A stretch of 54,940 nt of DNA, the filler included, from Jimgerdemannia flammicorona (Eukaryota): assembly GCA_003990765.1 (NCBI GenBank). It is 3 parts of 3 records of this genome, joined end to end, with 100 filler letters (N's around TTAATTAATTAA, not from the genome) between each part and the next. Parts side by side here need not be neighbours in the genome. Positions count along the whole stretch, not along the records: positions 18,360 to 36,605 come from RBNJ01002252.1; 2 more parts are not named here. One strand, 5' to 3'. Made by a program: the position numbers and the translations under genes. The notes beneath the pieces were generated by a model. The model made no database searches. It saw only the letters and a list, made by a program, of their open reading frames with translations, and was not told where the DNA came from. Numbering within the stretch: the stretch's first letter is position 1; each line of letters starts with the position of its first letter. Below are positions 2,416 through 52,821 of the stretch, one piece after another.

Positions 2416-2495
2416 AACACCTTTCTCTAGTAATATTCAAGTGATACAAACTTCTAATAACTCTCAAGATATCATTTTTGGAAAAAAGATACTAG
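2416..2495 (+). mobile_element. 5' UTR of the L1/Tx1-like LINE, separated from its body by the gypsy insertion
   Basis: Aligns by eye to 54603-54683 of the young copy (...gaaaaaagatactag vs ...gagaaaagctactag). Confidence 0.75.
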
Positions 2496-4030: not shown

Positions 4031-4040
4031 TCTTCCTCCT
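4031..4040 (-). other. Polypurine tract of gypsy element 1
   Basis: Minus strand reads AGGAGGAAGA immediately before the 3' LTR. Confidence 0.85.
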
Positions 4041-4399
4041 GAATAAGGATCTTCCTGAGCATCCTTATTCATTGGTCCAGTCCTGAAAAATTTTCTGATC
4101 CCATAACCTCTGGCAAGGGGTTGAAAAGTGGTATTTATGGGCTAGCATCTTCTCTTTGTATTTTGGCATAATGGTGAAGGGTTGCTCCCTTCATATAGAG
4201 CAAGGGCCTGATTCTGATCTTAACCAATCAGTTGATGGTTTGAACTCCTCTGACTTCGAAAGTCTCATAGATGAGTAGTTGCCAGTGCCATATCCCTTAG
4301 AGAATGGTCCAGACAGATAGCCTGCTGGTCATGGGACATGCTGTTATGATTCATGGACTAGAACCTCATGGGCGGTCATTATATTTTGCTTCTCTTATA

Positions 4400-7300
4400 T
4401 AGGTTCATGGTACTTCTTGAGTCTGTTCCTATGTACTGTGGTAGGTAGTATGGTCCCTGAGATTTTTCTAAGCCAGAAGATAGTTCCCTTGATATCTTGC
4501 ACATAGAAGGGTCCTTCCCATTTGGGCTCCAGTTTTCGTAACCATGAGGCTTCTACTATATTTTGATATAGTAGAACCTTTTCTCCAATCCGGATGGGTT
4601 CTAGGGCCTTGTGATTCTTTTCTATATTCTTCTTTGTCAGCGCTTGTGACTTGGTGATATAATCTTCAGCCTTCTTCCTGATTTGGTGTAGTCTCCGGAT
4701 TTCTGTATCAACCTATCTCCAAGTTAGGTCTAGATTTGTGGCTGAGGTTCTATCAGAATCTTCTTCTCTGAAGAGCAGCTCCCTTGGGGTAAAGTGTGTG
4801 CTCTGTGACCATATGTCTCATAGGACAGAGAGGGCAGTTGGGAGGTAGTTATCCCAATTCTTATATATTTCCGAGATCTTCACTAGGATGTTCTTGAGGG
4901 TCTTGTTGGTTCTCTCTGCCTGTCCATTTCCTTGAGGGTGATATGCGGTGGTCTTGATGTGCTGGATCTTGTATTTCTAATACATTATCTCATGGAATCC
5001 ATTGACAAATTTCATTCCATGGTCTGTTGTGATTTACTTTGGTGTCTTGTAGTAGCAGATGATTTCTCGGTGTAGGAAGTCGGTTATAGAGAGGGCATTG
5101 GCTTCTTGTAATGCTCCTGCCTCTATCCATTTGGTGAAGAGGTCTACAATAACTATAATATAGCAGTTTCCTGATAGTGTTACTAGTAGTAGTCCAATGA
5201 TAATTCTTTATGACCCAGGTGCCTGGTCTTACTGATCTTATTTCTGTTTTTGGCACTTGTCACACCCTTTGACAAATTGGCACAGGTCTTCTTCTATCTT
5301 GGACCACCACATGGTTCTTCTTATCTTGTCATATGTATTGGTTCCTCCTAAGTATCCTTGCTTGTATACTTCCTTCATTACTTGATACTTCTTATGTTCA
5401 GGTATTACTAGCTTTTCTCCTTTTCTAAGTATAGTGTTGTCTAATTCAAACTATTTCCAAGTCCGGTTAATGATAGTGGTGTCCAGGGTTCGAGGTGGTT
5501 GGGCATCTTCTACTGCCTAAGATAGCTGATTAATCCATAGTATAGCTCCTTATTCATGTTGAATAGTCTTGATGGGGGTGTTTCGGGGTATCTTTGAGAG
5601 TGCATCGGTATTGGTATTGGTCTTTCCTGAGCAGTACTTGATAGTACAGTCATACTCTTACAGTCTGTAGATCCATCTGGCATATATTCCTTTGGGGTTC
5701 AGAGTGTGGAATAGCCAGGCAAGAGCAGAATGGTCTATTTGAATAGTGAAGTATTTCCTAGCTAGGTAGTAGTGAAACTTGTCTACTGCCTAGACTACTG
5801 CTAAGCATTCAAGCTTATATGACTCATAGTTCTGTTCTGCTCCACAGGTATCTCAGCTTGCATAGGAGATGACATATTCATGTCCATCTTTCTTCTGAGC
5901 TAGGACTGCTCCAAGTCCTATAGCACTCGCATCTGTCTGCAGGATGAATTCTAGGTTCCAGTCTGGTCTTCTGAGGATAGATACTTGGGTCAACCTGATC
6001 TTGAGTTCATTGAAGGTTTCTTGGTACTCCTTGGTCTATTTGAATTTGGTCTCCTTCTTCAGTAGCTCATAGATAGGTACTGCAATGTTAGAGTATCCTT
6101 TGATGAATCTTCTGTAGTAGCTGGCCAGTCCAAGGAAGGTGTGGACTTCTGTGGTTGTTCTGGATCTCAGGTAGACTGCAATAGCCTTGATCTTCATGGG
6201 GTCTGTATGGATTCCAGTCTGGTTGATGAGGTATCCTAGATAGGCAATTTCTTGAGCTGCAAACTTGCATTTCTTGGGCTTGATGTAGAGGCCATGCTCC
6301 TTAAGCCTCTTGAGGGCTAGCTGTATGTGATTGACATGTTCCTGTATAGTATTGCTGAAGATGATCACATCATCAATATAGACAAAGAGTCATTTTCCAA
6401 TCTCATTGCTGAAGACTCTGTTCATCATTTGCTGGAAACTTACTGGGGCATTGTACATTCCAAATGGCATTCGCAGATAGATATAGGTGGCATCAGGTGT
6501 GATGAAGGCTGATTTCCCACTGGCATCTTGAGTGAGACCAATCTGATGGAAGCCTGAGAACAGATCCAAGGTGGTATAGTATTTGGCTTTGCTTCCAAGG
6601 GTGATAAGGATTTCTTGAATATTCGGCAAGAGCTGCCTATCCTTCTTGGTGATGGCATTGAGCTTCCTGTAGTCAATACAGAGTCTTGGTGCAAACTCTC
6701 CAGGCTTGCTTCCTTTCTTCAGGGCTAGGACAATGGGTGAGGCCCAGGAGTTGATAGCTTGCTTAATGATTCCAGCTTCTTCCATTTACTTGAGTTCTGC
6801 TTGTAGCCACTCTCTGTAGGCAGGTGGTATGGGTCTGGCTTTCTGATAGATGGGCATGGTATCACCGGTGTCAACTTTGTGATAGTACTTAGGCTCTTGA
6901 TTGTGGATATCCCTAAAGTCTGTAGCAAGTACTCCTTTGTTCTGATGCAGGATCTTGAGAAGTTGTTTCTCCAGAGGAAAGTTTTCTCTAATGGTATATG
7001 TGTACTTGTTCTGGTCCTTGTCTTTCTTGTACTCAAGTTCAGCAATCTTGGTGGTAGCATAGGCTCCTCTTCCAGTAGATCCAAAGCCTTGTTCTCCTCT
7101 CTTGGTCTTGATGAGTTCGATGGCTTCTATGATCTTGGGCTTCTTGATTTCGTGGATCAGCATCTGGCCAATCCTGTCATACTTCTTGACTTCGAAGGGG
7201 GTGGTGTGGTTGTGATTTCTAACTATAAGGAAGATCTCACTAGTGTAATCAGGGTCAATTACTCCTCCTTCAACTGAGATTTCACTTTTGGCCAAACTGC

Positions 7301-9634
7301 TTCTGGTCTTGATAATTCTGGCATAGTTTTCTGGTAACTTGACTCTAATTCCAGTGCCAAGTAGGGTGGTGGTCTGTGGTTCGAGGGTAGCATCTTGAAT
7401 ACTGACAAGGTCCATTCCTATGGCTCCTTCAGTCTTGTATTCTGGGATCTTGGCTTCAGGGTGAGACTTCTTGACTTTGAGAGTAATGTCTGATTCTTGT
7501 TCCTCCTCATCATCACTGTCAGCTTGAAGCTCTGGGGGCTGGTCATCTTCTTTGGCTTTCCTTTTTGTTTTGGTAGCTTCTTGCTCATGTTTCTGTTGGT
7601 GGATTTTTCTGACTTCACTGATACAGGACCAGCAGTCATTCAGGTGTTCGGAGCAGTACATTCTAGTACCATGGGGGCATCTTCCTTGAGGGGCATAGCC
7701 ATCAATGATCTTATTGTACCACTGCTCATCTGTGAGTTTAGGTATCTTGTTCTTATTCTTGTTCACCGAGTGCATGAAGACTTCTGTGTCTTCATCTCTT
7801 TCCTCTATGTCTGGTAGGACTCCTTTGTGGACATTGATAGAGACTTATACCTTTCTTTCTCTGTAGTTGATCTGTATCTTCTAGGCATTAAGGTCAATAA
7901 TGGCCTTGACCTTGTGAAGCCATTGGTTGCCAATGAGAATGTCATAGTTGGTGGTACTTGTAACAATCACATCTACTGAGATGGTAGCTCCTCCTATCTT
8001 AATGGGACTTCTCGGATTTTGCCAAGGAGAATAGCTCATGTACCATCTGCTGTGACATAGACCATCTTGATGGACTCTTCAATGTCCCACCCTAGGCAGT
8101 CAATTGCCTTCATGCTCATGAGACATCCTCCAGCACTAGTATCAATGATGGCATCAAAGATATAGTCTTCAATCTGACAGGGGGTATAGGCTGATGTCTT
8201 GTGCTAGTCTTCAGATTCTTCACCTGAGTTCTCAGATTCTTCCTGTGCATTGTGAGCTTCTACAATCTTGTACTCTTGATTCTTGGCAGTAGTTGCAAGT
8301 CCTACTCTCAACTGCTGTCTGAAGGCAGGGACTTTAGCTAGCTGTTCAAAAGTAGCATTAACCTTCTGTTCCTTGAGGTCCTTGTAGATGTCATATTGGT
8401 GGATCTTGGTCTTGTGCAGCTTCTGTTTCTTCTTGCTTTCGCTTTCTCCTGAGACTGGAGTAGTGCCTTCTATGATTTGGCAGGCAGCTTCATCTAACTC
8501 CATATCTTGATCAATCTCCTTGGGTTGGGTCTTACTTTGAATAGTGACAGCTGGGGTCTTCTTTGGTCTTCCAACTGGTTTGCTGTTGCTCTTCTTGTCA
8601 TAGGGCTTGGACCAGGTTCTGGTACCTTCGATAGCAAAGTAGAATTCGAGCTCCTCATAGTATTCTTCATCATCAGTGTCACCGATCTCCTCAATGACTA
8701 CTGCATTGGTTTGTTCTCTGGTTCTGCTAGCATTGCTTGGTTGGGCTTTGCATCTTGTTTTGGTTATGCAACTCTTTGCATAGTGGCCTTCTTCTCTACA
8801 TCTGAAGCATGTGATATTGCATTCTTCTGTAGCAGCTGCAAATCTCTGCACTAGTCTCTTGTTAGTGCTTTGGACCTCTCTAACAACATCACCAAGATGT
8901 GCAGTCATCTTGGTGAACTGCTTGGCGAGTTCTTCCACTGGATCAGCTTTGGCTATCTTGGGGGTAGGTGGGGTTGGTTGTCTGTTTATGACTGTGGTAG
9001 GTAAGATACTAGTTGACTTTGATGGCTCTATCTTGATGCCAGTTATTTTCTCCATTGAGTGTTCGGCAGGGTGTCTGGCAGTCCAATATTTCTGTGCAAA
9101 GACCACTTTCTGATCAAGGGTCAGTGTAGCCGAAGTAGACCAGATTGCTAGGGCAATTTCAGGGTGAACTCCTTTGAGGAAGATTGAATCCACTATTTGT
9201 TCCTTGAGGTAGTCATCATAGCCAGCCAAGACAATCTGATGGCAAATTCAGATATAGAATGAGTTAGAATCTTCACTAAGTCCCTGGCAGATAGTATTGA
9301 GTTGATCCTTGAGAGCTTGCTTGATCTCTTCAGTATAATATGTTATTCTGAGGAAGACCTTCATGTTGGTAAGTTTGGCTGCATCAGCATCAGTAATAGT
9401 GGCTGCATTGAACTTATCTCTAACAGGTCCTCTGAGGCTGACTGATAGAAGGGCCAATTGAGTATCTACACCAAGGGCTTGTATAGTGGCAAATTATTCA
9501 AAGTCTTCAATGAAGGTTAGGATTGACTCTACAGTAGTATATCCATAGAATGTGGGGGGATGTATTTCCATCTTATCTTGAATTCTTGCAGGGGTGACTC
9601 TTGTAGTCAGGGTAGTTGTTGTGGGGGTTGTTCA
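4400..9634 (-). pseudogene. gag-pol polyprotein with stops and frameshifts (ends approximate)
   Basis: Gag PPTFYG; zinc knuckle CFRCREEGHYAKSC; protease AIIDTSAGG (~8150); dUTPase; RT LCIDYRKLN, LDLFSGFHQI, MPFG, YIDD (~6375); RNase H LQTDASAIGLGAVL; integrase with GPF motif (~4510); no chromodomain seen. Confidence 0.93.
7071..7485 (-). other. dUTPase domain between protease and RT
   Basis: Trimeric dUTPase motifs GMDL, RSSLA, GVIDPDY, RIGQML, RGEQGFGSTG within ORF 6786-7775. Confidence 0.95.
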
Positions 9635-9670
9635 TTTTTCAGCTTGAAAGTGAGGGATTTGTCTTGAATC

Positions 9671-9688
9671 ACTAGCCAATGGGCACCA
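9671..9688 (-). other. Primer-binding-site-like motif
   Basis: Minus strand reads TGGTGCCCATTGGCTAGT 3 nt after the 5' LTR; the TGG start complements tRNA CCA; cognate tRNA not determined. Confidence 0.7.
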
Positions 9689-9691
9689 AGT

Positions 9692-11226
9692 TGTCACATA
9701 GTGGTCACTGAGTCCTTCAAATATATCAGATTCTCTTCAAGATATATCTCTTTGACTAACTCAAGTTTGTTATAAGCAAGTTCTTATTGGAGTACCTTCT
9801 CAAGGTCTTATAGTCCTCAAACTTCTTATCTTTAAACTGTCTTGTTATCTCTTAGATTGCTTGCAAGGAAGTGTATATATTGTACTGAGAAGAACTAACT
9901 TTATTTCAGAGAAAATAAGAGAGGTATTTATACAAAATATAATTTAATGGTTGCTATGATATAAGGCTAAATATAAATTCCAATAACTAAAACTACTAAG
10001 TTCCAGGGCTGGCACTGATAGTTGTACAGATTCAGAATACTGGTATTATTTAGTATCACATCAAAATACCGGTGCTGGAACAATTTTGCATCACCTCAGA
10101 ATACCAGTGCTGGCATTATCCAGTGTTACATGAGAATACCGGTGCTGGTATTATTTAGTGTAATAAAGAACTTAGAGCAGAAATTTCAGGACCATGGGAG
10201 CTTCATCCTCATCATCATCATCACTGAAGGAGATGAGATCTGTGAACTTGTCATGTAGGTCGCACATTTCGCATACTTTATATGGGATGATGTCATTGCT
10301 GATGACATCATCACATTCAGCAGGGAAATCAGGAACAAGATCTGGAGCTCTCCAGTCTATGAGGTTCTCTTCCACAAAATAGAGAACAAATGTAGAGTCT
10401 TGGGGAGGTCTAATCTGGATGCTTGGGCCTTAAAATACTGAGATCAATCTTTGCAGGAATTGGTCTGGGTTGTCCTGAAGGATAGGATGCCAGAAGTCTT
10501 CTACTTCTTCACTATTGAGGGTGATAGTGGACTGGGCTTCTGTAGCCACTCTGGCTTCTAGTGCATTGATATGGTAGGATGATAGGTCTCTGAAGTCTGA
10601 GACTCTGACATACTCCAAGTTAGAGATTGATTATGGTACATGTCTGAAGATCTGATGGATCTTCTTAGCTGTCCTTATTTCACATATATCCATGGGAGTG
10701 GCATCTTGTAGCTCTTGGGTACTGGCCTGTGGGAACTTCCAGTAGAGGAGGTTTCCTATTTTGTACTCCTGTCACATTTGGAGGCATTCAGTAGTAATGG
10801 TGATCCTTGTTTCCATTTCATGGCAGTAGAGAATGAAGTAATAAGAGTCTGCAGTACCCAGGTGGACACTAGGAGTCCTTCTTGAGCAGGTCCCCATAGC
10901 TCTTCTGATGTCTTGGAACATCCTTTCCTTGACCGAGATACCTTGGTGATTTCTTGACCTTGAGGTTTGGCAGGCAGCAGGTATTTCATTTGTGGTAAGT
11001 CTTTGAGCTATTTTGGGATTGGTGGTTCTTATTAGTTACTGCTACTGCAGTTTCTTGATCCTTCTTTTATATTCTTCAGGATACTTATACTATGGTCACA
11101 ATGACTCACAGTGAGTCATCATTGCTCATCTCATATGCTATATGATCTTCTTGTACTCCAATCTGGTGGCTTGCAAGAAAAGGCTGTCTCCTGTACTGAT
11201 GTCATCATTCTGGGGTCACCATTACA
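9692..11226 (-). repeat. 5' LTR of gypsy element 1
   Basis: TGTCACATAG...CATTACA, with a PBS-like site next to it on the minus strand. Confidence 0.95.
10172..11011 (-). pseudogene. LTR-embedded ORF (5' LTR copy)
   Basis: Same frame at offset 7196; fragments 10430-10618 and 10172-10375. Confidence 0.75.
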
Positions 11227-20887: not shown

Positions 20888-21437
20888 GATTTGGATTGCA
20901 GGATTTGGTTGAAGGATTCGGATGAGGATTCAGATTGAAGGATTCGAATTGGAGGATTCGAATTGGAGGATTCGAATTGGAGGATTGGAATTGAGTGATT
21001 CGGATTGAGTGATTTGGATTGAGTAATTCGGATTGAGTGATTTGGATAGAGTGGTCCGGATTGGAGTGGTTTGGATGGGTGATTCAGATGGGTGATTTGG
21101 ATGGGGCAATTCAGATGGGGCGATTCAGATTGAGTGATTCGGATTGAGTGATTTGGATTGAGTAATTCGGATTGAGTGATTTGGATAGAGTGGTCCGGAT
21201 TGGAGTGGTTTGGATGGGTGATTCAGATGGGTGATTTGGATGGGGCAATTCAGATGGGGCGATTCAGATTGAGTGATTCGGATTGAGTGATTCGGATTGG
21301 GGTGGTTCGGATGGGTGATTCGGATGGGGTGATTCAGATGGGGCGATTCAGATTAAATCCAAGTTGATCCAGATGGCTTCGGATTTGAGAATCGAATCAA
21401 ACCATCATGTGACGAATCGAATTCGGATTTGATTCAA
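20888..21437. repeat. hAT subterminal repeats (GATTCGGAT-like units, higher-order 139-bp duplication)
   Basis: Dozens of 12-13-bp units; block starts at 20993, 21132 and 21271. Confidence 0.9.
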
Positions 21438-21458: not shown

Positions 21459-22936
21459 ATGGTTATGTTGGCCCGGCTGACTGTACTGTACTGATTGGGG
21501 GCATACCCTGCCCACAACCCACCTCCTACGTGTACCTGGGCATGCCGTACACTAACAAAGGGTTTGACTTTGTCAACCTTACATTGCAGAATGCGGCGAA
21601 GGTGGAACAAACTCTTGGTTTCTGCCACACCCATGGTCCCCTCTGGTCACTAATGGTCAAGTTGGCCATCATATGAACATTCATCAGGCCTCAGCTGGAG
21701 TATGGCCTCCCCCTTCTACAAGCTTCCTGTCCAGCTACTACCATGGGGCTTCAGGTGTTGAAGTGTCCCGAGCAGGTCTTTGATGACGCTGTCACTTGGG
21801 CAGTTGGATTTTCTGGCTGTCCCTTGCTTGGCAGCTCGATTCTTGGCCTCTCTTCCTTCCTTCATCATATGTCTGACCTCTGCTGCATATTCCAAGCCCA
21901 CCTGGATTGGTGTAGCAAGTCAGGTAACAACCCTATCAGTCCCCTTAGCGAGCACTTTGTCACGCATCCCCCGGGTTCTATTATTGACAAGTTCCGGCAT
22001 TGGACCTCTTGGCTTGACTTCCTCAACTAGTACTGGGACCTTTGTCCCCAGGTCCGCAAGACTCGCTCGCTCTGCTCCTTCTTCCAGTCCTTCCTTTGGG
22101 ATCAGTTGCTGCAGGAATGGGCCTCCTCTTCTCAGGCTCTCGTTCGGTATATCACCCCCAAAGGCCACTTGCGGTCGAGGGGTGCCGATTGTGTCCTCTC
22201 CTTCCCCCCCCAGCTTGTGCATTCTGCCCTTGCTTGGCATTATGGCTACTTTGGCCAACCCTGCCCCTGCCCCTGTGGAGATAAGTTTCATCATGGCCAT
22301 CTCCTCAGGTGCAGTCTTCTCAACGGTTCGTATTCTGCTTTCCGAGGTTCTTCCGATTGTGATGAACAACTCGATTGGTTTTCCAATGATGAATGCCAGG
22401 AAGAACTTCATGCCTACCCTCTTCATGCTCTTCACTTGACAGCCTACCATGCTATAGACACCATGTATAATTCTGGTGGCCACCTCGTGGTCGGGTTTTG
22501 TCTGACCGAGATTATGAAGATGCTTGGGTGATTGAGCGATCGCACATTTTCTTTACTCCTTTCCTTCCCCTCATTTGCCCTGGTTGGTTCCCCAGTCATT
22601 GAGAGCGCATTGAGTTATTCATCTCATGTCAGTCGTTTAGTGTTTAGTTGTTGATACAGTTCATGTAGTTGGTGCCAGGTAAATGTGTATTATATCTTAG
22701 CCTTTCTTTTCTTGCTTCTGCATTTATTATCTTTATGGCCATGACAAAATGGTTTTATCCAGCCCGTCCATAGGGTGGTCACCTCTCTGGCCTTTGTTTT
22801 GTACTTCTTAGCTAGTTGTTTACTTCGCTGGCCTTGTTTTGCTTTTCTCATCTTAGGTGTCTTGTCTTTTGTTGCACTGATGTACCCTACCTTCTCTACA
22901 ATGAATAAATTCTTACTTAAAGCCTAACCCTAACCC
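21459..22936 (+). mobile_element. Telomere-repeat-tailed non-LTR element, copy A (RT C-terminus and 3' UTR)
   Basis: YVYLGMP, FIRPQLEYGL, CPCGDKFHHGHLLRC; colinear with 25473-26948; ends AATAAA..GCCTAACCCTAACCC. Confidence 0.93.
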
Positions 22937-25900
22937 ACAAGCTGACCTCTCATTTGTCGCCGACTGAGAAGGGCGCTAGGCTGCAGCGCATTTACATTGA
23001 CGGATTTGCCCATCTTAAGATCGGGCAGATTCGGAAGAACTTATACAATGTCCATGTGATGTTGTCAAAAGTTCTCAACATGTCGTACGTCTCGGCGTTG
23101 ACTATCGAATTCCTGCTCTGCCCTGATTATATCACAGCATTCCAAAAGAAGATGAAGGTGCTCAGGTTCTCGGTGCTGTCAGCCTGGGACCCCATGCTCC
23201 CATGTAACAAGAATGCCACAGAGGCTGTGAAGACATAGATACTCCAATCATTCCATGCTCAGGTCCGGTAGCTGGCAGGCGAAGCCACTGCGAAGAGGCC
23301 TGAGGTGCAGACCTTCTACCGAGCTTGGGCTGTGGAACTCAGCCTTACTCTCCCCTCCCCTGCCTCCCTGTCGGCCAGCTCTGCTTCGAAGGCAGGTGGT
23401 ACTGTGGCCATGATGGGTGATATGGCGATGGATCTGGAAGCCGAAGCTTCCTCCTCAGGTGCTTCCCACGCTGTTGGCGCTAATGCACCCGGCCCACAAT
23501 AAGAGTTAGGTTCCTCAATGCATACGGACTACCCCAGAACAAGTTCGATATGCTCAGTTGGCTGATTGGTCCTGCCCTCAATGTTCTTTTCTTATGTGAA
23601 ACGTGGCACATTCCGCTGCGTCCCTCTCTACTCATTCACATGTTCTCTCCTCCGGCGTCGGACAGGATTGTGGTTCACCAGAATGGTGGTCTCGTGGTCC
23701 TTGTGTCAAACCGTTTCACCCCCCTTATTTCCGGGTCCTCCGCTGATCCCTTCCATATCCGGCTCATGTTCCAGGGCCTGGCTTTAGTTGGGGTTTATGC
23801 CCCCCCTTCTCTTCCCATTGGTAGCTTCCGTGATTTGGTGTCTGGACCCTTCCCGGGTAAGGCCCTTTTGATCGGTGACATCAATACCCATTTCGGTGCC
23901 TGCCTTGGTGACATCAACTCTGGTCCTCGCAATCAGATAGATGTCGTCGACACCTCTCTGATGACATGGTCATTGAACCACCTGACCCCAGTGGCTGGAT
24001 CCACATGTGTTGATCACGCGTTCGCCACCGCGTCCCTCCACGCGTCCCTTACTTGCTCCACCCCTCCTGTCGCTACCAACCACCCCTCCCTCCTCACTGT
24101 CTCCTTCCCCTTCTCCCCCTTGCTAGTTGCTGCCTTGGCTGGCATCCGTCATTATTCTGCGAGATACCTGACTGACCCAGTCATCCAAGCTCACCTTCAG
24201 GAATCAGTGGATATCATTTGCAATACCGTTATCAGGTCTATCTACTCGCTCAGAGACCACATCGCCAGCTTTCACTCTGTGGATGATTGCCAGCAGTTTG
24301 TGGATTCCCTTGACGCCCTTTTGACCTCTGGTCTACAGTCTGTCTGTGAGGACATTCTTGGCTCATATGACGCAAGAGAAATCAGGGTAGTGCCGCTCCT
24401 CCGGTGAGACCTTCTTCACAATGCATCTTCGGTCTCTGATGCCATCTGTGGTTTCAAGCGAGCATACTGCTCCACCCCCTCTACTCCCCCTCAGTCTCGC
24501 TCCCCCAATGTCCTGGTGTTCAATAATGTGGTTGCTCACTTCACCACTATCTTCGGCCAGCCGGACGCCTCCCTCTGCCTTGATGACTCTGAGGATGTCT
24601 TCCCCCTTAGCGTGGGTGCTCTTGTGCTGCAGTTTTGGTTTGACCAACCTGCAGTTTGGAGGGCTGTCCACAGCTACACCCTCTCAAAGGCATGTGGTGC
24701 CGACTCCTTGCATGTCCGGATCCTTCGGGTGATGGCAGGTGAGAAGGACACCCCTTGTAGCCTTTCGAAGGCCCTTTCGTTCTTCTTCCAGATGTGCATG
24801 GTCTGGGGGCTCACTCCCTGCCACTGGAACTCAGCCATCATCACCCCGGTCCCCAAGAAGGAGGAATCATGAATGATTGATGGATTTCGCCCTATTGCTC
24901 TGACTGAAATATTTCATAGACTCTTCAAGCGGTATTTGGAAGGTTACGTCAAAAGCCGAAGTAACCTGACAGAAATGTCGCGCTGCCAAGGTGGCTTCTG
25001 AACCCGCTTCTTGTCCCTTTCTCATGTCTTGTTATTGCATGAGACGTGGGCTAAGAGATGGAGCTGCTGTGTCTTTTTGGACCTCCGGCAGGCATATGAT
25101 CAAGTCCCCCTCAAGCATTCTTTCTCACCTTGAGGCACGAGGTGCCAATGTGGCCCTCCTTAGCATTATTCGAAGTCTGTTCAATCACTGTTCTTATCAG
25201 GTAGTTGTTAATGGCCTCGTCACCCCTTTGGTCCCCACTGAGTGCAGCCTCTTCCAGGGCTCCCTCCACTCCCCTTAGCTATTTGATGTCTTCATCGACC
25301 CCCTCGCCGCCTCCTTTGATGAGTAGTTCAAGGAGTACGACTTCCCCCTCAGACTTTTCTTTGCTGATGATATTGCCCTTACCCCCTGCACTGCTGCGGA
25401 AGGGCAAAGGATGGTTGATTTTTGCGAGGATTGACTCTGGGTGAACGGTATGGAGCTCAATCCCAAGAAGTGTGGTTATGTTGGCCCATCTGACTGTACT
25501 ATGCTGATTGGGGGCAAACCCTGCCCGTGACTCACCTCCTATGTGTACCTGGGCATGCCGTACACCAACAAAGGGTTTGACTTTGTCAACCTTGCATTGC
25601 AGAATGTGGCAAAGGCAGAATGAACTCTTGGATTCTGCCGTGCCCATGGTCCCCTCTGGTCGCCAATGGTCAAGCTGGCCATCATATGTACTTTCATCAG
25701 GCCTCAGCTGGAGTATGGCCTCCCCCTTCTACGAGCTTCCTGTACAGCTACTACCACGGGGCTTCAGGTGTTGAAGCATCCCGAGCAGGTCTATGATGAC
25801 GCTATCACTTGGGTGGTTTGATTTTCCGGCCGTCCTTTGCTTGGCAGTTTGATTCTTGGCCTCCCCTCCTTCCTTCATCATATGTCTGACCTCTGCTGCA

Positions 25901-26948
25901 TATTCCAAGCCTATCTGGATTGGTGTAGCAAGTCGGGCAACAACCCTATCAGCCCCCTTAGCGAGCGCTTTGTCATGCATTCCCCAGGTTCTATTATTGA
26001 CAAGTTCTGGCGTTGGACCTCTTGGCTTGACTTCCTCGACTAGTACTGGGACCTTCATCTCCAGGCCCGCAAGACTCGCTCGCTCCACTCCTTCCTCCAG
26101 TCCTTCCTTCGGGATCAGCTGCTACAGGAATGGGCCTCCTCCTCCCAGGCTCTTGTTTGGTATATCACCCCCAAAGGCTGCTTGCAGTCGCGGGGTGCCG
26201 ACTGTGTCCTCTCCTTCCCCCCCTGGCTTGTGCGTTCTGCCCTCGCCTAGCGCTATGGCTACTTTGGCCAACCCCGCCCCTGCCCCTGTGGAGATAAGTT
26301 TCATCATGGCCATCTCCTCAGGTGTGGTCTTCTCGACGGTTCATATTCTGCTTTCCGAGGTTCTTCCAATCATGCTGAACAGCTCGATTGGTTTACCAAT
26401 GATGAATGGCAGAAGGAACTTTGTGCCTACCCTCTTCACGCTCTTCACGAGATAGCCTACCATGCTATAGACATCATGTGTAATTCTGGTGGCCATCTCG
26501 TGGTCAGGTTCTGCCTGACCGAGATTACGAAGATGCTTGGGTGATCAAGTGATCACATATTTTCTTTATTTCCTTCTTTCCCCTCATTCGCTTTGGTTGG
26601 TTCCCTTGTTGTTGAGAGCGCATTGAGTTATTCACCTCATGTCAGTCATTTGGTGTTTAGTTGTTGATACAGTTCATGTAGTTGGCACCAGGCGAATGTG
26701 TACTATATCTTAGCTTTCTCCTTCTTGCTTTTTGCATTTATTGTCTTTATGACCATGACAAAATGGTTTTATCCAGCCCGTCCATAGGGTGGTCACCTCT
26801 CTGGCCTTTGTTTTGTACTTCTTAGCTAGTTGTTTACTTCGCTGGCCTTGTTTTGCTTCTCTCATCTTAGGAGTCTTTGTCTTTTGTTGCTCCGATGTAC
26901 CTTTCCTTCTCTACAATGAATAAATTCTTACTTGAAGCCTAACCCTAA
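22933..26948 (+). mobile_element. Copy B: 5'-truncated in ORF1, near-complete APE-RT ORF2 (~23499-26666, disrupted)
   Basis: APE motifs FLNAYGL, LCETW, NGGL, GVYAPPS, IGDINT, VDHAF, TNHP; RT motifs KACGADSL, ITPVPKK, FRPIALT, CQGGF, FLDLRQAYD, LFQGS, FLADDI; ends GCCTAACCCTAA. Confidence 0.95.
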
Positions 26949-27268
26949 GTATCTCATATCAATCATTTGGTATTTGGGCATTAATATTATTCTCATAGTT
27001 GGTACCAGATATTTGTGTATTATATTTAGTCTCTCTCTTCTTTGCTTTTTGTATTTATTATTCTTATGGCCATGACAAAATGATATATCCAGTCTATCTA
27101 TAGAGTAGTTACCTCTCTGGTCTTTTGTTTCTTTCTTCTTAGTTAATATTTACTTCCCTGGTCTCTTTTTGCTTTACTTACCTCAGAAGTCTTTACTGTT
27201 TATTGCTCTGATATATCTTATCTTCTCTACAATTAATAAATCCTTACTTGAAGCCTAACACTAACTAA
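26949..27268 (+). mobile_element. Copy C: 3' UTR-only fragment
   Basis: Colinear with the last ~320 bp of copies A and B; ends GCCTAACACTAACTAA. Confidence 0.9.
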
Positions 27269-27459
27269 GCCACTCATGTGATTTTCCCATTTAGCTAGAC
27301 TTAGCTTTATGACCTAATTAGCTAAGCCTCTTATTAGGTATAAATATTCCCTTTTATATTATTTTTTCATTGTATAAATAATGGTCATGTGACCTGCATT
27401 TTGCAATTTCAAATAAATAAATAAATACATCTCTATCTATTTCTGCAATATCAGCCACC

Positions 27460-27511
<52 letters not shown>

Positions 27512-30500
27512 TATTTATGTAATAAAATACATTGACCTTACCTCTATATGATCTCTGAAGGGTCCTCCACCCCCTACCCCTTCATAATATTCAACATAAC
27601 ATTTCTCTGTAGTATCTACCATCAGCCATCTCCTCTATCATTAGTACAAATACTACCTACCTCTATATATACTTTATATCTTACTCTACTATACTGAATG
27701 TCATGACATCAGTCTCCTTTCTCTCAGTTTTGAAAAGAGTAGCCTTATATTGATATAAATGTTATGCAGGGATATCTGACGGATATGTATCAGTAAATTT
27801 ATCTTCTCTATGTGATATTGAAAATAATGAAGAGATTGCAATCTCTTCTAATTCATACCACAATGCTCAGCATCTACTCTTCTCTCCCATGCCCCTGACC
27901 CTCAATTATAATAAGTGTGGTTGACCAAACACTAGTTTGAGAATAACCCCAACTATTACTTATGTAGATCTCTCAGCTGACACTGATCTAGTTACAGAGA
28001 TGGCCATGATGAGAAAGAAGATCTTAGATCTGCTGACTCAAGTGGCTGATTTGATCAAGATCAATGTCAAATGATAGTGCAGCTTGCTACACAATTGGCA
28101 CTCACTGCTTCTATATCTTCTGGTACTCCTTCAGAAAAGACTCCTACTACCCCATCCTTATCTACTACCTCCAAATTCTCAGTCCCCCCTTCTATTGGTG
28201 GTCAAAGGCCAAGAAATAAGTAGACAAGCAGACTGCTAAAGCCAACATATCACAGTCTGGTATACTACCAAAGAAGATAACTCCCATGGTTGTACCTCTA
28301 GCTACTAAAGCCATATCTTCTAAAAAGGACAAGGCCAAAGCCCCCAGGCCAGTACCCCAGACTATATCAGTGGGACTCAGTGTCACCAGTCTATCTTCAT
28401 CTCTCTCTTTGGCCCCCTCTAAATTATATACTAATACTACCAAGAGGGTCTCTATCAAAGATAGGACCCAGGTCTACTCTGAGACTGAAAGAGCTGCTGT
28501 TGCTATATTCCTTTCATACATGACCCATAAACTAATCTTTCATTTATCACCAACTAAAAGAAGTACTCAGCTACAGTATATTTGTATTGACATATTTGCC
28601 TATCTTAAAATTGGATAGGTTTGGAAGAATCTATATAATGTCTATATAATATTGTCAATCTCAAAATATCATATATCTCAGTATCAACTATTGAATTCTT
28701 CCTATATCCTGATTATGTTATTGTATTCTAAAAGAATATTAAGATGCTTGGGTTCATGTTACTCTTTATCTTAGACCCTATACTCCACTGAAATAAGAAT
28801 ACTATAGAGGCTGTGAAGACTCATATCCTTCAATCTCTCTATGCTCAAGTCTGACAGTTGGCTGGCAATATTACTGCAAAGAGGCCCAAGGTACAGATCT
28901 TCTACAAGATATGGGCTATGGACCTTCATCTCACCCTCCTCCCTCTTACCCCCTTGATGGCTGGCCCTGCTTCAAAGACAAGTAGTACTGTGGCCATAAC
29001 TAGAGAGATAGTGATAGATTTGGAAGCTGAATATTCCTCTTCAGATGCTTCTCATACTATTGATACTAGTGTGCTCAGCCTACAATGAGAGTCAGATTCC
29101 TCAATGCATATAGACTAACTCAGAACAAGTTCAATATACTTAGTCAATTCTTTTTATATATAAAAAGTGACACATTTTGCTATATCTCTCTCTACTTATT
29201 TATATGTCTTTTCCTCTGGTATCATATGGGATTATGGGCCTACAGAATAGTAGTCTTGTAGTTCTCATATTAAACCATTTTGTCCCACTTGTTTCTGAGT
29301 CCTCTGCTGACCCCTTTAATATCTTGTTCATGATCCAGAGCCTGGCTTTGGTCAGGGTTTATGTCTCCCTCTCTCTTTCTATTGGTGGCTTCTAAGATCT
29401 TTTATCTGGTCCCTTCCCAGATAAGATTCTTTTGATTAGAAATATTAATATATACTTTGGTACCTGACTTGGTAATATTAACTTTGATAATAGAGATTAG
29501 ATAGATGTTGTTGACACCTCTCTAATGATATGATTGCTAAATCACACAACTCTGGTAGCTGGATCCATTCATGTTGATCATGCATTTGCCACAATATCTC
29601 TCTATGCATCTCTCATCTGCTCTATCTTCCCTATTGCTACTGACCACCCTTTCTTCCTTACTGTCTCCTTTTCCTTCTCCTCCTCACTGGTTGCTGTCCT
29701 GGCTGATATTTACCATTATTCTACAAAGTATCTGACTGATCCAGTCATTTAAGTTCACCTTCAGGAATCAGTGGATATCATTTGTAATAATATTGTCAGG
29801 TCCATTTACTCTGTCTAGGACCACATCATTGACTTTTACTTTGTGGAAGATTGTCAGCAGTTTGTAGATTCCCTTAACTTCCTTTTGACCTCTGGTCTAT
29901 AGTCTGTCTGTAAGGACATTCTGGGCTCATAAGATGTCAGAGAGATCAGGGCAGTACAGCTCCCACAGTGGGACCTACTTGTAGTGCATCTTTAGTCTCT
30001 GATACTATTTATGGTTTTAAGTACATATATCACTCCACTCTTCTGGTTTCTCTCCAATCTCCCATTGTATAATGTAGTTGCTTATTTTACCACTATCTTC
30101 AGCCAGCTGGATGCCTTCTTATGCCTCAATGACTCTGAGGATGTCTTTTTCCTTAGCATGGAGGCCCTTGAGCTACAGTTATGATTTGATCAGACTATAG
30201 TTTGAAGGGCCATCCATAGCTACCCTCTCATAAAGATCTGTGGGTCTAACTCCTTGTATGTCCAGATTCTATAGGTGATGGCAGATGAGAAGAATACTCC
30301 CTATAGTCTATTGAAAGCTTTGTCCTTTTTCTTCCAGGTGTGTATGGTTTGAGAGCTCTCTCCATGTAGCTAGGATTCTGCTATCATTACTCTAGTTCTT
30401 AAGAAAAAGAAATCTCAGACAATTGATGGATTTTGTTCTATTGCTCTCACCAAAATATTTTGTAGACTCTTTGAGTAGTGTTTGGAAGGTTATATTAAGA

Positions 30501-32554
30501 GCCAAAGTGGTCTGACAGAAATGTCATACTACCTAGACAAATTCTATACCCACTTCTCATCCCTTTCCCATGTCTTGCTCTCACATAAAATATGGACCAA
30601 GAGATAAAGCCACTATGTCTTTCTTGACCTCCAGCAGACATATAATAGAGTTCTCCTCAAGTTTATTCTTACTTGCCTTAAGGAATAAGGAGTCACTGCA
30701 GTTCTCCTTAGTATCATTAGGAGTCTGTTCAATCAGTATTCCTATTAGGTAGTTATTAATGGCCTTATTACCACTTCAGTCCCAACTGAGCACAGCTTCT
30801 TCCAGAGCTCTCTCCTCTCTACTTAGCTCTTTGACATATTCTTTAACTCTCTTGCCACCTCCTTTGATAAGCATTTTAAAGAGTATGTCTTCTGCCTTGG
30901 GTTTTTCTTTACTAATGATATTGCCCTCACCCCCCATACTATCACTGAAGAGCAGAGGATGGTTGACTTTTGTGAGCACTGGCTCTTGGTGAATGGTATG
31001 GAACTCAACCTCAAGAAGTACAGATATATTGGTCCTGCTGACTATACTATATAGATTGGAGGTAAATCCTATCCATGACCCCTCACCTATATATATCTGG
31101 GTATTCCATATACTAATAAAGAGTTTGACTTTGTCAGTCTTGTATTACAGAATGTAGTGAAGGCAGAATAAACTCTTTGGTTCTACTATACCTATAGTCC
31201 TCTATGATTACCAATTGTCAAGCTGACCATTGTATGTACCTTCATTAGGCCTTAGTTAGAGTATGGCCTTCTTTTCTATGAGCTTTCTGTCCAGTAACTA
31301 CTATGGGGCTTCAGATGTTAAAGCCCTAAGTAGGTCTTTGATAATGCTATCACTTGGGTGGTTGGATTTTCTGGCTATCTCTTACTTGGCAGTTCAATTC
31401 TTGGCCTCTCTTCCTTCCTTTGTCATACATTGTACCTCTGCTATATATTCCAAGCTCATCTGGATTGATGTAACAAGTCCGGCTACAACTCTATTGACTC
31501 TCTTAGTGAGTACTTTGTCATATATCTCCTGGGTTCTATTATTGATAAGTTCTGATAATGGATCTCTTGGCTTGACTTTCTTGACTAGTACTGAGATCTT
31601 TGTCCCCAGATCTGCAAGACTTACTCTCTTTCCTCCTTCTTCTTATCATTCCTCCTGGATTAGCTACTTCAGGAATAGGCCTCCTCTTTTTATGCCCTTA
31701 TTCAATATATCACTCCCAAAGACCACTTGTGATCTAGGGGAGCTAACTATGTTCTCCTTTCTCTCCTGATTTGTGCATTCTGCTCTCACCTAGTATTATG
31801 GCTATTTTGGCCAACTCTACCTCTGGTTCTATGAGATAAGTTTCATTATAGTCATCTCTTCAGATACAGTCTTCTTAACAGTTCATATTCTGCTTTTAGA
31901 GGTAATTCTAATTATAATGAATAGCTCAATTGGTTTACTGCTAATAAATTGCAGGAGGAACTTCACACCTACCCTCTTTATGCTCTTCATAAGTCAGCCT
32001 ACCATACTATTGATACCATGTATAATTCTGGTAACCATCTCATAGTCAGGTTTGGCCTGATTGAGATTTTGAAGATGCTTAAGAGATCAAGCAATTGTAC
32101 ATTTTCTTCATCTCCTTTTATCCCCTCATTTGTCTTAGTTGATTCTCTTGTCATTGAGAGTGCATTGAGTTATATATCTCATATCAGTTGCTTAGTGTTT
32201 GGTATCAATATTGTTCCTTTGGTTGGCACTGGGCATTTGTGTATTTTATCTTAGCTTCTCTTTTTTTTTGCTTTTTGTATTTATTATTCTTATGGTAATT
32301 AGAAAATTGTTTATCTAGCCCAACTGTATGGTGGTCATCTCTCTGATCTTTGTTTTGTTCTTCTTAGCTAGTTGTTTACTTCACTGGTCTCTTTTTGCTT
32401 TTTATATCCTAGCCAAGCTAAGCCATCCTTGTTTCACAATTGTCTGGACTGCTGTTCCTTTTCTCATCTTCAGAGTCTTAGCTATTTATTGTTCTTATAT
32501 ATATTACCTTCTCTATAATGAATAAAACTCTTACTTGAAGTCTAATTCTAACCC
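27269..32554 (+). mobile_element. Copy D: probably near full length (putative 5' UTR, ORF1 to 29088, ORF2 from 29085), strongly mutated
   Basis: 28523-32554 is colinear with copy B; upstream low-complexity ORF1 relic; ends GTCTAATTCTAACCC; 5' boundary uncertain. Confidence 0.88.
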
Positions 32555-33079
32555 TTCATATCTACCCTCTTTATACTCTTTACCAGACAGCTTACTATAC
32601 TATTAATATCATATATAATTCTGATATCTATCTTGTAGTCAGGTTCTGCTTGACTATGATTATAAAGATACTTAGACAATCAAGTGATTGTATATTTTCT
32701 TTACTCTCTTTCTTTCTCTCATTTACATTAATTGGTTCTTTGTCATTAAGAGTATATTGAGTTACTAATCTCATATTAGCCACTTAATGTTTAGTTATCA
32801 ATACTGTTTCTATAGTTAAAGCTAGGTATTTGTATATTTTATTTAGCTTGTCTCTTTTTTGCTTCTACATTTATTATCTTTATAGCAATGAATAAATATT
32901 TTACATCTCTCTAGTCTTTGTTTTATTCTTTTTAGCTAGTTGTTTACTTTACTGGCCTCTTTTTGCTTTTCTCATTCTAAGATTTTTTGCATTAATTGCT
33001 CTGATATATCTTTTCTTCTCTACAATGAATAAACTCTTACTTTAAGCCTAACCCTAACCCTACTCTACCCTAACCCTAA
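32555..33079 (+). mobile_element. Copy E: 3' fragment with the longest telomeric tail
   Basis: Colinear with the last ~530 bp of the element; ends CCTAACCCTAACCCTACTCTACCCTAACCCTAA (33047-33079). Confidence 0.9.
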
Positions 33080-33385
33080 TATATTTCCTAATATCTAATC
33101 TTGGCTAAAATATGACCTCTAACTTCTTTATACTTCTGTCTAGCTACTACTATAGGTCTTTAGATTTTAAAGTATCTTTACAAGATTAATAATATGTAAT
33201 GTTATTAATTAGTTAATCAGATTTTCTAATAAATCCTTACTAATAATTCATTTCTCTACTTTCTTTCTTTTATTATTATATATTAGATATCTACTATATA
33301 TTTTAAGCCTATTTAGATTAGTATAATAAGTCTAATAATAATCTCATTTATTCTATTAGTAAGTGTTTTATCATATATCTTCTAA
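33080..33385 (+). mobile_element. Copy F: very decayed fragment of the RT C-terminal region
   Basis: Still alignable by eye to ~21680-21975 (ttctgtctagctactactatagg vs tcctgtccagctactaccatggg). Confidence 0.7.
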
Positions 33386-35546
33386 AAGAAAGCTATCTTT
33401 ATATCTCTATACTTTAGATCTATCTCTATACTTTCTCTTTTTAGATAAAAAAGAGTTAAGATAATAATTTTCTAATTTATTTCACTTTCACTAAATTAAC
33501 TATATCTCAATAACTAACTTGAATCTTTAAGATTTGGATTTCTATAAATTACTTTAAAATCAAATCTATTCTTATTTTCTATCTATTTACAAGTATATAT
33601 ATATTTTCTTTTATTATTATATATTATTCTGTTAGTATCTATTTTAGAGTTTAATAGCTTTACTTTTCTTAATTATTCATAGTTTTACTATAGGCAATAA
33701 TACTCATTCTTCTATCAGGCTTATTTATTAGTAAATATATTATATACTATATTAAAAACTCTTCTTATATATTTACACTAGCTTCAGTTAGTACTCTATC
33801 TTTAGAAGCTCATTTAGTCACTCTTCTCAATTACTCCTCATATTAGAGTAATGATAAAAACCTACTTCAATTAGATTTTACTTTAGTTTTTATTACTTTT
33901 TCTATATTAAGCAATCTCTCTATCTTTATATCTTATATAATTCTTTCTTATCTTTCTTTGTAAGAATTTTTACTTTATCTCTGTAAACTCTTATACTACT
34001 CTATTTTCTTATTTATATCTATATATTTAATTCTTCTTATAATTTGTATTTTATATTAAAGAAAGATCTGCCTCTAATCTTTTCAGCTAGGTAAAAATAT
34101 TTTAATATCTTATAGAGTCTTTTAAACTATTCATAATTAGTAATATTTTCTCAAAGTATTTTTAGGTCTCTAATAATTTTATCCTCATTTTCTCTCTAGC
34201 TATATTCAGATTATATTTTATATTTATTTCTATATCTATATTCTTCTTAGTATTTAATCTAGTTAGTACTTAGCAATCTTTTTATCATCCTTAATCTCTA
34301 TTAACTTCTTTATTTCTTATATACTATTTATCAAATTATTAATTTATTCTTCTATCTCTACTAAAAAGTAGTATATTTCTCAGCAATTACTACTTAATCA
34401 GTCTCTCTTTTCACATTAACTTTATAGTTCTCAGCCTTCAATATTATAGTCATTATCTCAGACTTCTATCCCTCTTACTACTTTATACTCTTACTTATAC
34501 ATATTTATTACTGATAATATATAGATCTATCTTTTTTTGCTCATCTATAGTCAACTTTCTTATTACTAAAAATATTTAGCAAGTTTATCTAGACTTCTTC
34601 TATCTGAAGTCACTGACCTTCTTTTTTCAATAAAGTAACTCTAGCTCTAATACTAGTAGGCTTATTTTATCTTTTCTTCAAAATATCAACTAACTGAAAA
34701 TTCTCTTCTTTAATAATCTGCTCTTATCTAGTAATCTAAATTTAATTCTATATATACTTTTCATCATTATATCTATTATAGTATTCTTCTTTCAAATATT
34801 AGTTAACTCAAAAGAGTCTATCTCTCTTTATATTATATTTTTCTTGGTTTTGATATTTATTCATTTCTTCTATCTCTTCTCTAGCTTTACACTCTAATAT
34901 CTTCTTTAAACTAATCAATAGATTCAGTCATCTCTTCAGGATCTCTAACAGATCTTTTTTCTCTTTTTTACTCTCTTTTACTTCAAATAAAAAGTCCCAT
35001 ATCAGTATTAAATATCAGACTTTAGTCTTTTTAGTAGTCTTCTTTTTAGTAAGCTAGAGCCTTATATCTATATTTTTTATCTTGAATAAAGTTCCCTTTT
35101 ATATCTAGAATCTAATATCTATACTCTAACCTTACTTCTTCATTACTTCCTTCCCTCTTCTCTATATTTTAATAATTATTATTATTAAGATCTCTTTTAC
35201 TAAAAACTATACTAACCTTAGATCTTACTTTAGATATATTTATATAGCTTTATTATTTTCTTTACTTTTAACTCTTATTTTTTAATATCTTCTAAAGATC
35301 TCTTCTCTTTAAACTCTATCTTAACTCTCTCTTCCCTATTTAAAAAATTCATTAAGATAATATTATTTAGCTAATTTATTAGTAAGTATAAATTATTCTG
35401 ATAAATACTATAAATCTCCAGAAATATAATATTACTATATAATCTAAAATCAATTTCTTAAATAATAGAATTACTACTATTATCTATTATTAGATATCTC
35501 TATCTTAGTACTTTAGCTATTTAGTCCTACTATTACTCATTATATC

Positions 35547-35577
<31 letters not shown>

Positions 35578-36300
35578 CAGATCTATTATTATCTTACTAT
35601 CAGTAGTTATATCTAAATTCCTCTCTACTATCTTTCTAATTTCTATATTTTCTCTATTGAATAATACTTCTTCAGACTCTTTTTATATTCATCTTTACCT
35701 TTCTTTTCTTCTATCTATCATCAATATCTTTAGACCAGTCAACAGTCTTTATCTTATCTGGAAATCTTATTTACTCAAACTCTCTACAATTGTATTAGAC
35801 TACTAACTCTCTTTAACTTCTCTCTAACTACTTTTATAACTAAAAAAACTCATTTTATACTATAATCTCCTCTTATATATTACTATCTAAATATATCAGA
35901 TCTACTAGCCTCATATATCTATTAATTTTTTTTTTATTAATATATTAATAATATCTTTCTTTAATAAACTATATAATAAGTTGTAAATTTTATATTATAT
36001 AAATAATAATAAAGAGAAATAATTACATATTATTAATTTATAAGTAAAATATCAAAAATCAAATTATAGTTTAAAAAATATATATATATTATATATAAAT
36101 TATAAATACTAATAACTAATTATTATATAATATAATAGAATATACTTTTAATAACTAATATAATAAATATTAATTATTAAGTAAATTATATTATATAAAA
36201 TAATATTGATTTTTATATATTTATAAATATAAAAAAAAAACCCTTCAATATAAATTTTTACTTTTAAAAATCATTTTCTAACCAAACATCAGATTGATAC
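33386..36300. other. Extremely AT-rich, CpG-free, strand-skewed relic DNA
   Basis: No ORFs; pyrimidine-rich on +; grades into near-pure AT at ~35900-36270; source element not identifiable. Confidence 0.5.
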
Positions 36301-36391
36301 AAATCAGCAATATAGTAAAAATTGGTAAAGAAATATATATAAAGAATAAAATTTCATAAAAAGAGACAAAATGATAACAGACAAAATCATA

Positions 36392-52764: not shown

Positions 52765-52821
<57 letters not shown>

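Follow-up and report, generated by a model that had tools for sequence, protein, structure and literature searches.

Telomere-repeat-like tails on a head-to-tail array of an APE-type LINE from Jimgerdemannia flammicorona and on its relatives

The window analyzed here was a stretch of 54,940 nucleotides from the genome of Jimgerdemannia flammicorona (GCA_003990765.1; three parts joined end to end, filler included). At positions 21460–33386 it contained six pieces (A–F) of one long interspersed nuclear element (LINE) with an apurinic/apyrimidinic-type endonuclease (APE) and a reverse transcriptase (RT). Blastn self-comparison and direct reading showed that all of them were on the plus strand and arranged head-to-tail. 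Copy A (21460–22922) was a 5′-truncated piece of 1.46 kb comprising the C-terminus of open reading frame 2 (ORF2) and the 3′ untranslated region (UTR); it belonged to the young class of copies and shared 89.9% identity with copy B across 1477 nt (blastn self-comparison). Its tail (22923–22936) was CCTAACCCTAACCC, 14 nt, and copy B began at the next base. Copy B (22937–26937, 4.0 kb) was the least mutated, was truncated inside ORF1 and was followed by the tail CCTAACCCTAA at 26938–26948, the modal 11-nt form. Copy C (26949–27253) was a 0.3-kb fragment of the 3′ UTR with strong C>T mutation and a GC content of 0.30, and its 12-nt tail (27254–27265, CCTAACACTAAC) carried one mutation. The longest copy was D (27266–32540, 5.3 kb), which included a 5′ region missing from B and had a GC content of 0.37, only 2 CpG and heavy transitions; its 14-nt tail (32541–32554, TCTAATTCTAACCC) had three C>T mutations. 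A homopolymer of T44 was located at 27465–27508, inside the 5′ part of copy D. Copy E (32555–33046) was a 0.5-kb 3′ fragment with the longest tract (33047–33080), in which the 16-nt CCTAACCCTAACCCTA was prolonged by CTCTA and then CCCTAACCCTAA as an imperfect 34-nt tract to 33080. Fragment F (about 33092–33386) came from the interior of ORF2, lacked a 3′ end of its own and was the most diverged: it was 64.6% identical to positions 3978–4268 of D in a plain comparison, and 87.9% (E 1e-80) with transitions collapsed. A tblastn search found no further copies elsewhere in the window.

Aligned to each other, the five 3′ ends of copies A–E had the same final base, CTTACTTNAAG. The combined 22-nt pattern CTTACTTNAAG+CCTAACCCTAA, searched with up to three mismatches allowed, gave exactly five matches, at 22912, 26927, 27243, 32530, and 33036, all on the plus strand; 0.01 matches were expected from shuffled sequences. 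The tails of A–E belonged to a CCTAAC-type repeat of 11–16 nt, and the next 5′-truncated copy began at the following base. No A-run was found after any of the five 3′ ends. The variable 5′ truncation together with a common 3′ end was as in LINEs. An earlier annotation made from the sequence alone (the first-pass annotation) had described six same-orientation copies or fragments of one APE and RT element. In that description five copies ended at one nucleotide followed by a telomere-type repeat, with no poly(A) and no evident target-site duplication, and ran into variably 5′-truncated next copies. These points were reproduced: A–E were recovered by blastn and F after collapsing transitions, and an exact k-mer search for target-site duplications was negative for the array. 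Its (CCCTAA)n overstated the length, since a perfect CCCTAACCCTAA occurred only once in the window and the junction tracts comprised about two repeats.

The coding content was best preserved in copy B. Its three-frame translation revealed an RRM-like block of ORF1 (about 22987–23200) and, in ORF2, an APE region (about 23514–24230) with the motifs ETW (E codon at 23598–23600), GDINTH (23874–23891), and VDH. These were followed by an RT region (about 24840–25560) with FADD at 25360–25371 and a C-terminal CCHC motif (26281–26325). An AATAAA was present at 26919–26924. The reading frame was broken by stops and by one frameshift near 25135. The read-through translation retrieved relatives of ~1000 amino acids at 22–34% identity, and tblastn with one of these proteins (P0001) covered its residues 4–1015 in copy B. 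Searched one by one, the uninterrupted ORF segments of copies A and B gave no Pfam match. Among nine homologues, RVT_1 was detected in all nine (E 1e-25 to 1e-31); Exo_endo_phos was weak and exceeded the cut-off in P0005 alone. No RNase H domain was seen in the ~1000-amino-acid ORF2 and no zf-RVT match was obtained in the Pfam scan of the homologues. Matches in the ESM Atlas fell into generic RVT/Exo_endo_phos clusters without taxa. In the relatives, ORF1 began with a Cys-rich part and further contained a stretch resembling a coiled coil and an RRM-like block, the last of which also existed in the window element. ORF1 matched no Pfam family, and a homology search with the 5′ part of copy D found nothing significant for ORF1.

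In a PDB search the family profile aligned with residues 8–823 of human L1 ORF2p (E 1e-47), which was the nearest solved chain and the sole full APE-type LINE among the PDB matches; a phmmer search of P0005 against PDB aligned the RT part alone. E36, Y106, D131, N133, H180, D206, and H207 (P0001 numbering) were invariant in nine divergent proteins, and they fell on the QETH, YAPN, GDFNT, IDH, and SDH motifs of human L1 ORF2p. An intact ORF2 of 1108 amino acids was found in a relative (locus L016). Judged by its predicted domains, the window element is an APE-type LINE, as the first-pass annotation had proposed. It is neither Penelope-like nor an element with a restriction-like endonuclease (RLE). 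Penelope-like element (PLE) identity was ruled out by the conserved APE and by this structural relative, and RLE identity by the N-terminal position of the APE-type endonuclease and a C-terminus with only a CCHC motif.

Relatives were collected by scanning metagenome contigs with the protein alignment, which yielded 79 loci (numbered L below), the 32 closest at ~30% amino acid identity. A C-strand telomere-like tail directly followed the recognizable 3′ UTR in 20 of these 32 loci, and 10 others stopped short of their own 3′ end. L017, which counts among the 32, had no tail in the 764 nt available, and L002 ended in the imperfect CCCTACCCT. At positions 3170–3205 of L002, CCCTACCCT was followed by (TTTGGTTC)x3, which may be an imperfect tail beside an unrelated microsatellite or another type of tail. 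Altogether 31 tails from the window and the relatives were tabulated, and all 31 had the C-strand orientation on the sense strand. The modal perfect tail was 11 nt long (CCTAACCCTAA, 10 of 31), and the longest perfect run was 21 nt. The exact 11-mer occurred 22 times in 17 of the 79 loci, always on the sense strand of ORF2. In comparison, none of 47 more distant LINE loci had such a repeat of at least 12 nt on either strand.

The RT tree (112 tips, FastTree, midpoint root, rows with <60% model coverage dropped) placed the 24 tail-bearing tips within one clade of 63 tips with a support of 0.70 and ~30% amino acid identity across the clade. Of the other 39 tips of this clade, 28 were proteins that lacked DNA context and 11 were loci. 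Nine of these loci stopped before the 3′ end; the tail status of L073 was not scored, and L002 had its imperfect tail. Over 12 diverse 3′ ends the tail was the sole conserved nucleotide feature. An AATAAA lay 10–25 nt ahead of the tail in the window element (13 nt), L001, and L003–L006. At least 150 clusters at 50% identity matched the whole profile with E 1e-196 or better, and the only named close matches among those listed were Calcarisporiella thermophila and Sporobolomyces ruberrimus. This is a deep and widespread clade whose assessable members end in about two C-strand telomere units (modal CCTAACCCTAA) and not in poly(A).

Arrays were also present in the relatives. In L012 the 11-nt tail of an alpha-subfamily copy was immediately followed by a 5′-truncated beta copy; in L021 the succession was an alpha copy, 345 bp of other sequence, a gamma copy, a beta copy and a 3′ fragment. 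The subfamilies joined in L012 and L021 were only 65–70% identical in nucleotides. L011 contained a full copy and then 3′ fragments of 140 and 225 nt (blastn). Thus, at least five of the 26 tails in relatives led straight into another copy, and L006, in which a tail lay 386 nt ahead of the first detectable residue of a 5′-truncated copy, was a probable sixth. At 5′ junctions, telomere repeats were found only where the tail of the preceding copy provided them, and they were absent at copy A and at L013/L023. Telomere-like sequence continued past the tail only at window copy E, L019, and L005. Directly after its tail, L005 had a ~30-nt satellite (4486–4720) of about seven units, each with ACCCTAACCCT or a variant, which had a subtelomere-type look. 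In L019, head-to-head telomere-like palindromes (AACCCTTAGGGTT) were observed near LINE copies at 8–22 and about 5385. Exact k-mers revealed no target-site duplication of at least 10 nt at the seven loci with a 5′ junction or at the window array, the 5′ ends being poorly defined, and one doubtful case was noted in L008. In L008 the tail passed directly into a dispersed palindrome, GGTGAAACCCWGGGTTTCACC, of which only the right half was left; the lost left half ends in AAACCC, which is telomere-like. This one case is anecdotal evidence for priming by microhomology. The 20-bp palindromes GGTGAAACCCWGGGTTTCACC in L008 were located at 2236, 2650, 3303, 3527, and 9943.

The copies in the window differed strongly in age. 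Between B and D, 672 of 1015 differences were C>T or G>A; B had 134 CpG and D had 2, and CpA was also hit. The decay of the old copies (26949–33386) resembled repeat-induced point mutation (RIP) and could equally be caused by deamination of 5-methylcytosine; classical RIP is not known to be established in Mucoromycotina. The transversion distance was 0.012 per site between A and B, 0.07–0.08 between A/B and C, D, and E (common 300 bp), and ~0.11 between F and the others. The youngest copies, A and B, were therefore at the 5′ (left) end and the old ones, C–F, on the 3′ side. This order and the strong age difference indicated two or more insertion events at one site in the making of the array. 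Younger copies on the 5′, telomere-ward side would be expected if the array had grown at a chromosome end or in a telomere tract.

Several known systems share parts of this anatomy. TRAS1 and SART1 of Bombyx mori (R1 clade) have an N-terminal APE and an RT in common with the window family, and the sense 3′ end of TRAS faces the C-strand repeat. The TRAS and SART elements are insect R1-clade elements with poly(A) that lie within kilobase-long (TTAGG)n tracts, whereas the window family has no poly(A), tracts of 11–34 nt and a fungal host. For SART1, base pairing between the RNA end and telomeric DNA has been proposed to take part in priming. The family profile matched no TRAS1 or R1 endonuclease chain in PDB at E 0.01, and L1 ORF2p alone matched the endonuclease part. 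The HeT-A, TART, and TAHRE elements of Drosophila form head-to-tail arrays of variably 5′-truncated LINEs with 3′ ends toward the centromere, like the window array; they have poly(A) tails and terminal arrays, in a host without telomerase repeats. Zepp stacks into earlier copies and has poly(A). Athena and Coprina contain no endonuclease and have PLE/TERT-like RTs. The window family differs from them, and from the subtelomeric family of Zymoseptoria, in its conserved APE and L1-like ORF2. That family has no endonuclease, carries 1–3 telomere units at its 3′ end and was interpreted by its authors as Penelope-like; it shares with the window family the 3′ telomere units, the 3′ end pointing away from the telomere, the tandem truncated copies and a fungal host (PMC4522978).

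In the MoTeR and FoTeR elements, as in the window family, a few TAACCC units come after the 3′ end and truncated copies form arrays (PMC12857005; PMC7367193). MoTeR, FoTeR, and Cnl1 have a C-terminal restriction-like endonuclease, cluster with CRE/SLACS and are reported at chromosome ends (PMC12857005). In contrast, the window family has two ORFs and its endonuclease is an N-terminal APE; none of its copies was seen at a chromosome end. Interstitial MoTeR tracts are stable only at two TTAGGG units or fewer, longer ones break, and internalized relics retain their 3′ repeats, some of them in single-copy DNA; duplications of a relic together with its 5′ flank also occur (PMC7367193). Short tracts, internal relics and duplications of element plus 5′ flank thus all have precedents in MoTeR biology. 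One such case may be L014 (3–9811) and L016 (1–9814), which shared 9.8 kb at 92.8% identity, that is, the LINE and at least 3.7 kb of 5′ flank, and diverged exactly at the end of the tail. The MoTeR duplications match this pattern (PMC7367193), and the divergence point could reflect a rearrangement or duplication that broke at the short telomere motif, transduction of 5′ sequence, or a join made in assembly.

Telomere-associated LINEs of the APE type outside insects are listed for the anole (Tx1-1_ACar) and Chlorella (Zepp), and in the same survey, from 2023, MoTeR1 is the sole telomeric retrotransposon listed for fungi (PMC10088271). The first-pass annotation had assigned the known fungal telomeric non-LTR (long terminal repeat) elements to the RLE type, which agreed with the literature (PMC12857005), and the APE-type telomere specialists to insects, next to which a lizard Tx1 element is also listed (PMC10088271). 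Its orientation was upheld, the sense 3′ end being followed by the C-strand repeat as in TRAS, MoTeR, and Coprina. So was its suggestion that the family is possibly undescribed: full-text searches, which did not extend to Repbase and subscription journals, found no APE-type fungal LINE with telomere-repeat tails. Grem-LINE1 of Mucorales is, like the window family, an L1-like LINE of Mucoromycotina; it has a CCHC ORF1 and zf-RVT, is pericentromeric and was reported as absent from Endogonales (10.1101/706580). Membership in Grem-LINE1 was rejected, as the domains were different (ORF1 without a Pfam match and no zf-RVT match in the window family). The window family combines the 3′ anatomy of fungal telomeric elements with the enzyme set of TRAS-like APE LINEs. 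Confinement to chromosome ends or telomere tracts was contradicted, as the window array was interstitial and the relatives lay inside contigs beside non-telomeric DNA.

With moderate confidence, we favor the explanation that the window element is a LINE that homes to telomere repeats, its RNA tail pairing with DNA 3′ ends of the TTAGGG type. The array would be an internal relic, or an interstitial repeat would have seeded it. A function of the telomere likeness is suggested by the canonical TTAGGG/CCCTAA unit, by its sole orientation for pairing with the G strand and by its retention across a clade of ~30% identity. That natural chromosome ends are not the only insertion sites is suggested by the conserved endonuclease and the large number of internal copies, and with a conserved endonuclease, priming at an end would not be required. 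For this proposal we infer the RNA end, a pairing-primed initiation, the endonuclease target and a past telomeric position of the array. The transcript would end in ...CCUAACCCUAA, the AATAAA of the window element lying 13 nt ahead of its tail, and the RNA end would pair with a TTAGGG-type DNA 3′ end and so prime reverse transcription. Such a DNA end may arise when the endonuclease encoded by the element nicks the G strand in a telomere tract, in an interstitial telomere-like site or in the tail of a resident copy; alternatively, a chromosome end may serve. If this recurred at a single tract, 5′-truncated copies would be stacked with newer ones 5′, and only short junction tracts (about two repeats or fewer) would survive. 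The array in the window would then be a relic of a tract that has since been internalized, or would have been seeded at an interstitial tract.

A number of observations weigh against this proposal. The array is interstitial within the 55-kb window and is not a present chromosome end: it lies at least 21 kb from either window end, no telomere repeats were found to its left, the left side holds 21 kb of other repeats, and the 5′ end of copy A joins non-telomeric DNA. The first-pass annotation had placed the telomere to the left, which was not borne out within the window. Its growth at an end or telomere tract found partial backing in the younger 5′ copies; the 21 kb of other DNA on the telomere side and the mostly non-telomeric DNA beside the relatives' tails spoke against it. 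The age order is based on two or three age classes only. Apart from the junctions with another copy, most tails in the relatives adjoined non-telomeric DNA in contigs of up to 90 kb, and L016 was located at 23.6–38.8 kb of a 90-kb contig. At 21 junctions between a tail and non-element DNA, the next 12 nt gave 70 of 252 in-phase matches and the controls 48–70, so that these flanks did not exceed the controls in telomere likeness. No contig ended in a long telomere tract, which is weak evidence because short-read assemblies rarely reach such tracts. In addition, a modal tail fixed at 11 nt fits a tail that is purely RNA-templated.

The last point leads to the main alternative, which we consider possible and somewhat doubtful. 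The element would be a dispersed LINE of the stringent type with a telomere-like microsatellite tail copied from its RNA, inserted anywhere by ordinary APE-mediated target-primed reverse transcription and without a telomere role. The (TAA)n of the I factor and the short repeats of UnaL2/CR1-type LINEs are analogues of such tails. Arrays would then arise through microhomology with resident tails, or through abortive reverse transcription and a template jump to a new RNA. This would account for the exact 11 nt of the modal tail at junctions and solitary copies alike (10 of 31), for the flanks past the tails that are not telomere-like, for the many copies inside long contigs and for the conserved endonuclease motifs. 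The 140-nt 3′ fragment of L011, which was 96.4% identical to the 3′ end of the adjacent full copy, is also as expected for re-initiation or a template jump. However, the tail is the exact canonical fungal telomere unit in the orientation that pairs with the G strand across a clade of ~30% amino acid identity, and a plain microsatellite tail would involve no selection for such a motif. The arrays of 65–70% identical subfamilies in L012 and L021 are awkward for a single-event template jump, and the strongly different ages in the window, with young copies 5′ of old ones, require at least two events at the same spot. The failure to find target-site duplications of at least 10 nt, at the seven loci with a 5′ junction and at the window array, may also speak against ordinary insertion.

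We consider it improbable that the family extends chromosome ends without its endonuclease in the style of HeT-A, Athena, and Coprina, with the RNA tail pairing with the G-overhang and internal copies being former ends. The anatomy is indeed as in the endonuclease-lacking subtelomeric elements of Zymoseptoria (PMC4522978), the younger copies are on the distal side, and the element in L005 adjoins a 30-nt satellite with embedded ACCCTAACCCT units. However, the catalytic residues are invariant across divergent intact ORF2s, which argues that the endonuclease is in use; internal contexts are many (20 loci), and 21 kb of unrelated repeats lie distal to the window array. An explanation by coincidence or by an artifact of assembly can practically be dismissed: loose telomere-like 11-mers (10 of 11 matches) did occur 1–7 times per shuffled window, but the end-plus-tail pattern matched five times against 0.01 expected, and the same feature recurred at 20 independent metagenomic loci of other assemblies, by which this explanation is in effect refuted.

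Telomere-associated retroelements are central to ideas on the relationship between telomerase and retrotransposons and on the repair of chromosome ends. The fungal examples in the searched literature are of the RLE type (MoTeR, Cnl1, and FoTeR) or Penelope-like and lack an endonuclease, and a clade of APE LINEs that has conserved such a tail of telomere repeats would mean that this solution was reached independently once more. We further speculate, while thinking it rather unlikely, that this is a deep, widespread and endonuclease-competent LINE clade of early-diverging and other fungi whose RNA end, CCCUAA repeats resembling a telomerase template, primes on TTAGGG 3′ ends in two modes, one inserting at internal telomere-like sites by means of the endonuclease and one adding to chromosome ends without it. 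If true, telomere homing would have originated independently a third time among the retroelements of fungi, the RLE elements and the PLEs without endonuclease being the other two cases, and the clade would be a living link from ordinary LINEs to elements that extend chromosome ends. The family would offer a test system for the pairing-primed model in which the endonuclease is active. The short interstitial telomere motifs are marks of LINE ends here, and genome annotation should not call chromosome fusions or assembly breaks at them.

To the left of the array, a minisatellite with a 14-bp unit, (GATTCGGATGGAGT)n, occupied 20915–21353 and ended 106 bp before copy A, with no telomere repeat between the two. 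To the right, ~4 kb of AT-rich, unclassified decayed sequence (33387–37500) had a GC content of 0.22–0.29. The left and right flanks of the array had no sequence in common. Housekeeping genes began ~5 kb to the right of the array. The first was COG8/Dor1 on the minus strand (39076–41337), the ORF of which was 100% identical to a protein of J. flammicorona (Endogonales, Mucoromycotina); the next-best named matches were from Mucoromycota and Glomeromycotina. A chromate transporter and an F-box gene were found beyond it. In this GC-rich gene region, minisatellites with units of 39 and 41 bp were located at 42209–42409 and 38387–38499, respectively.

A Ty3/gypsy-type LTR retrotransposon was detected on the minus strand at about 2000–10200 of the window. 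It encoded a gag zinc knuckle and a dUTPase domain, the dUTPase ORF being at 6786–7844. L032 held a related Ty3/gypsy-type element with the dUTPase placed between RT and integrase. A-runs of A89, A41, and A54 were present at 37103–37191, 864–904, and 52766–52819 of the window, respectively, and these may be the tails of other retroposons of the poly(A) type.

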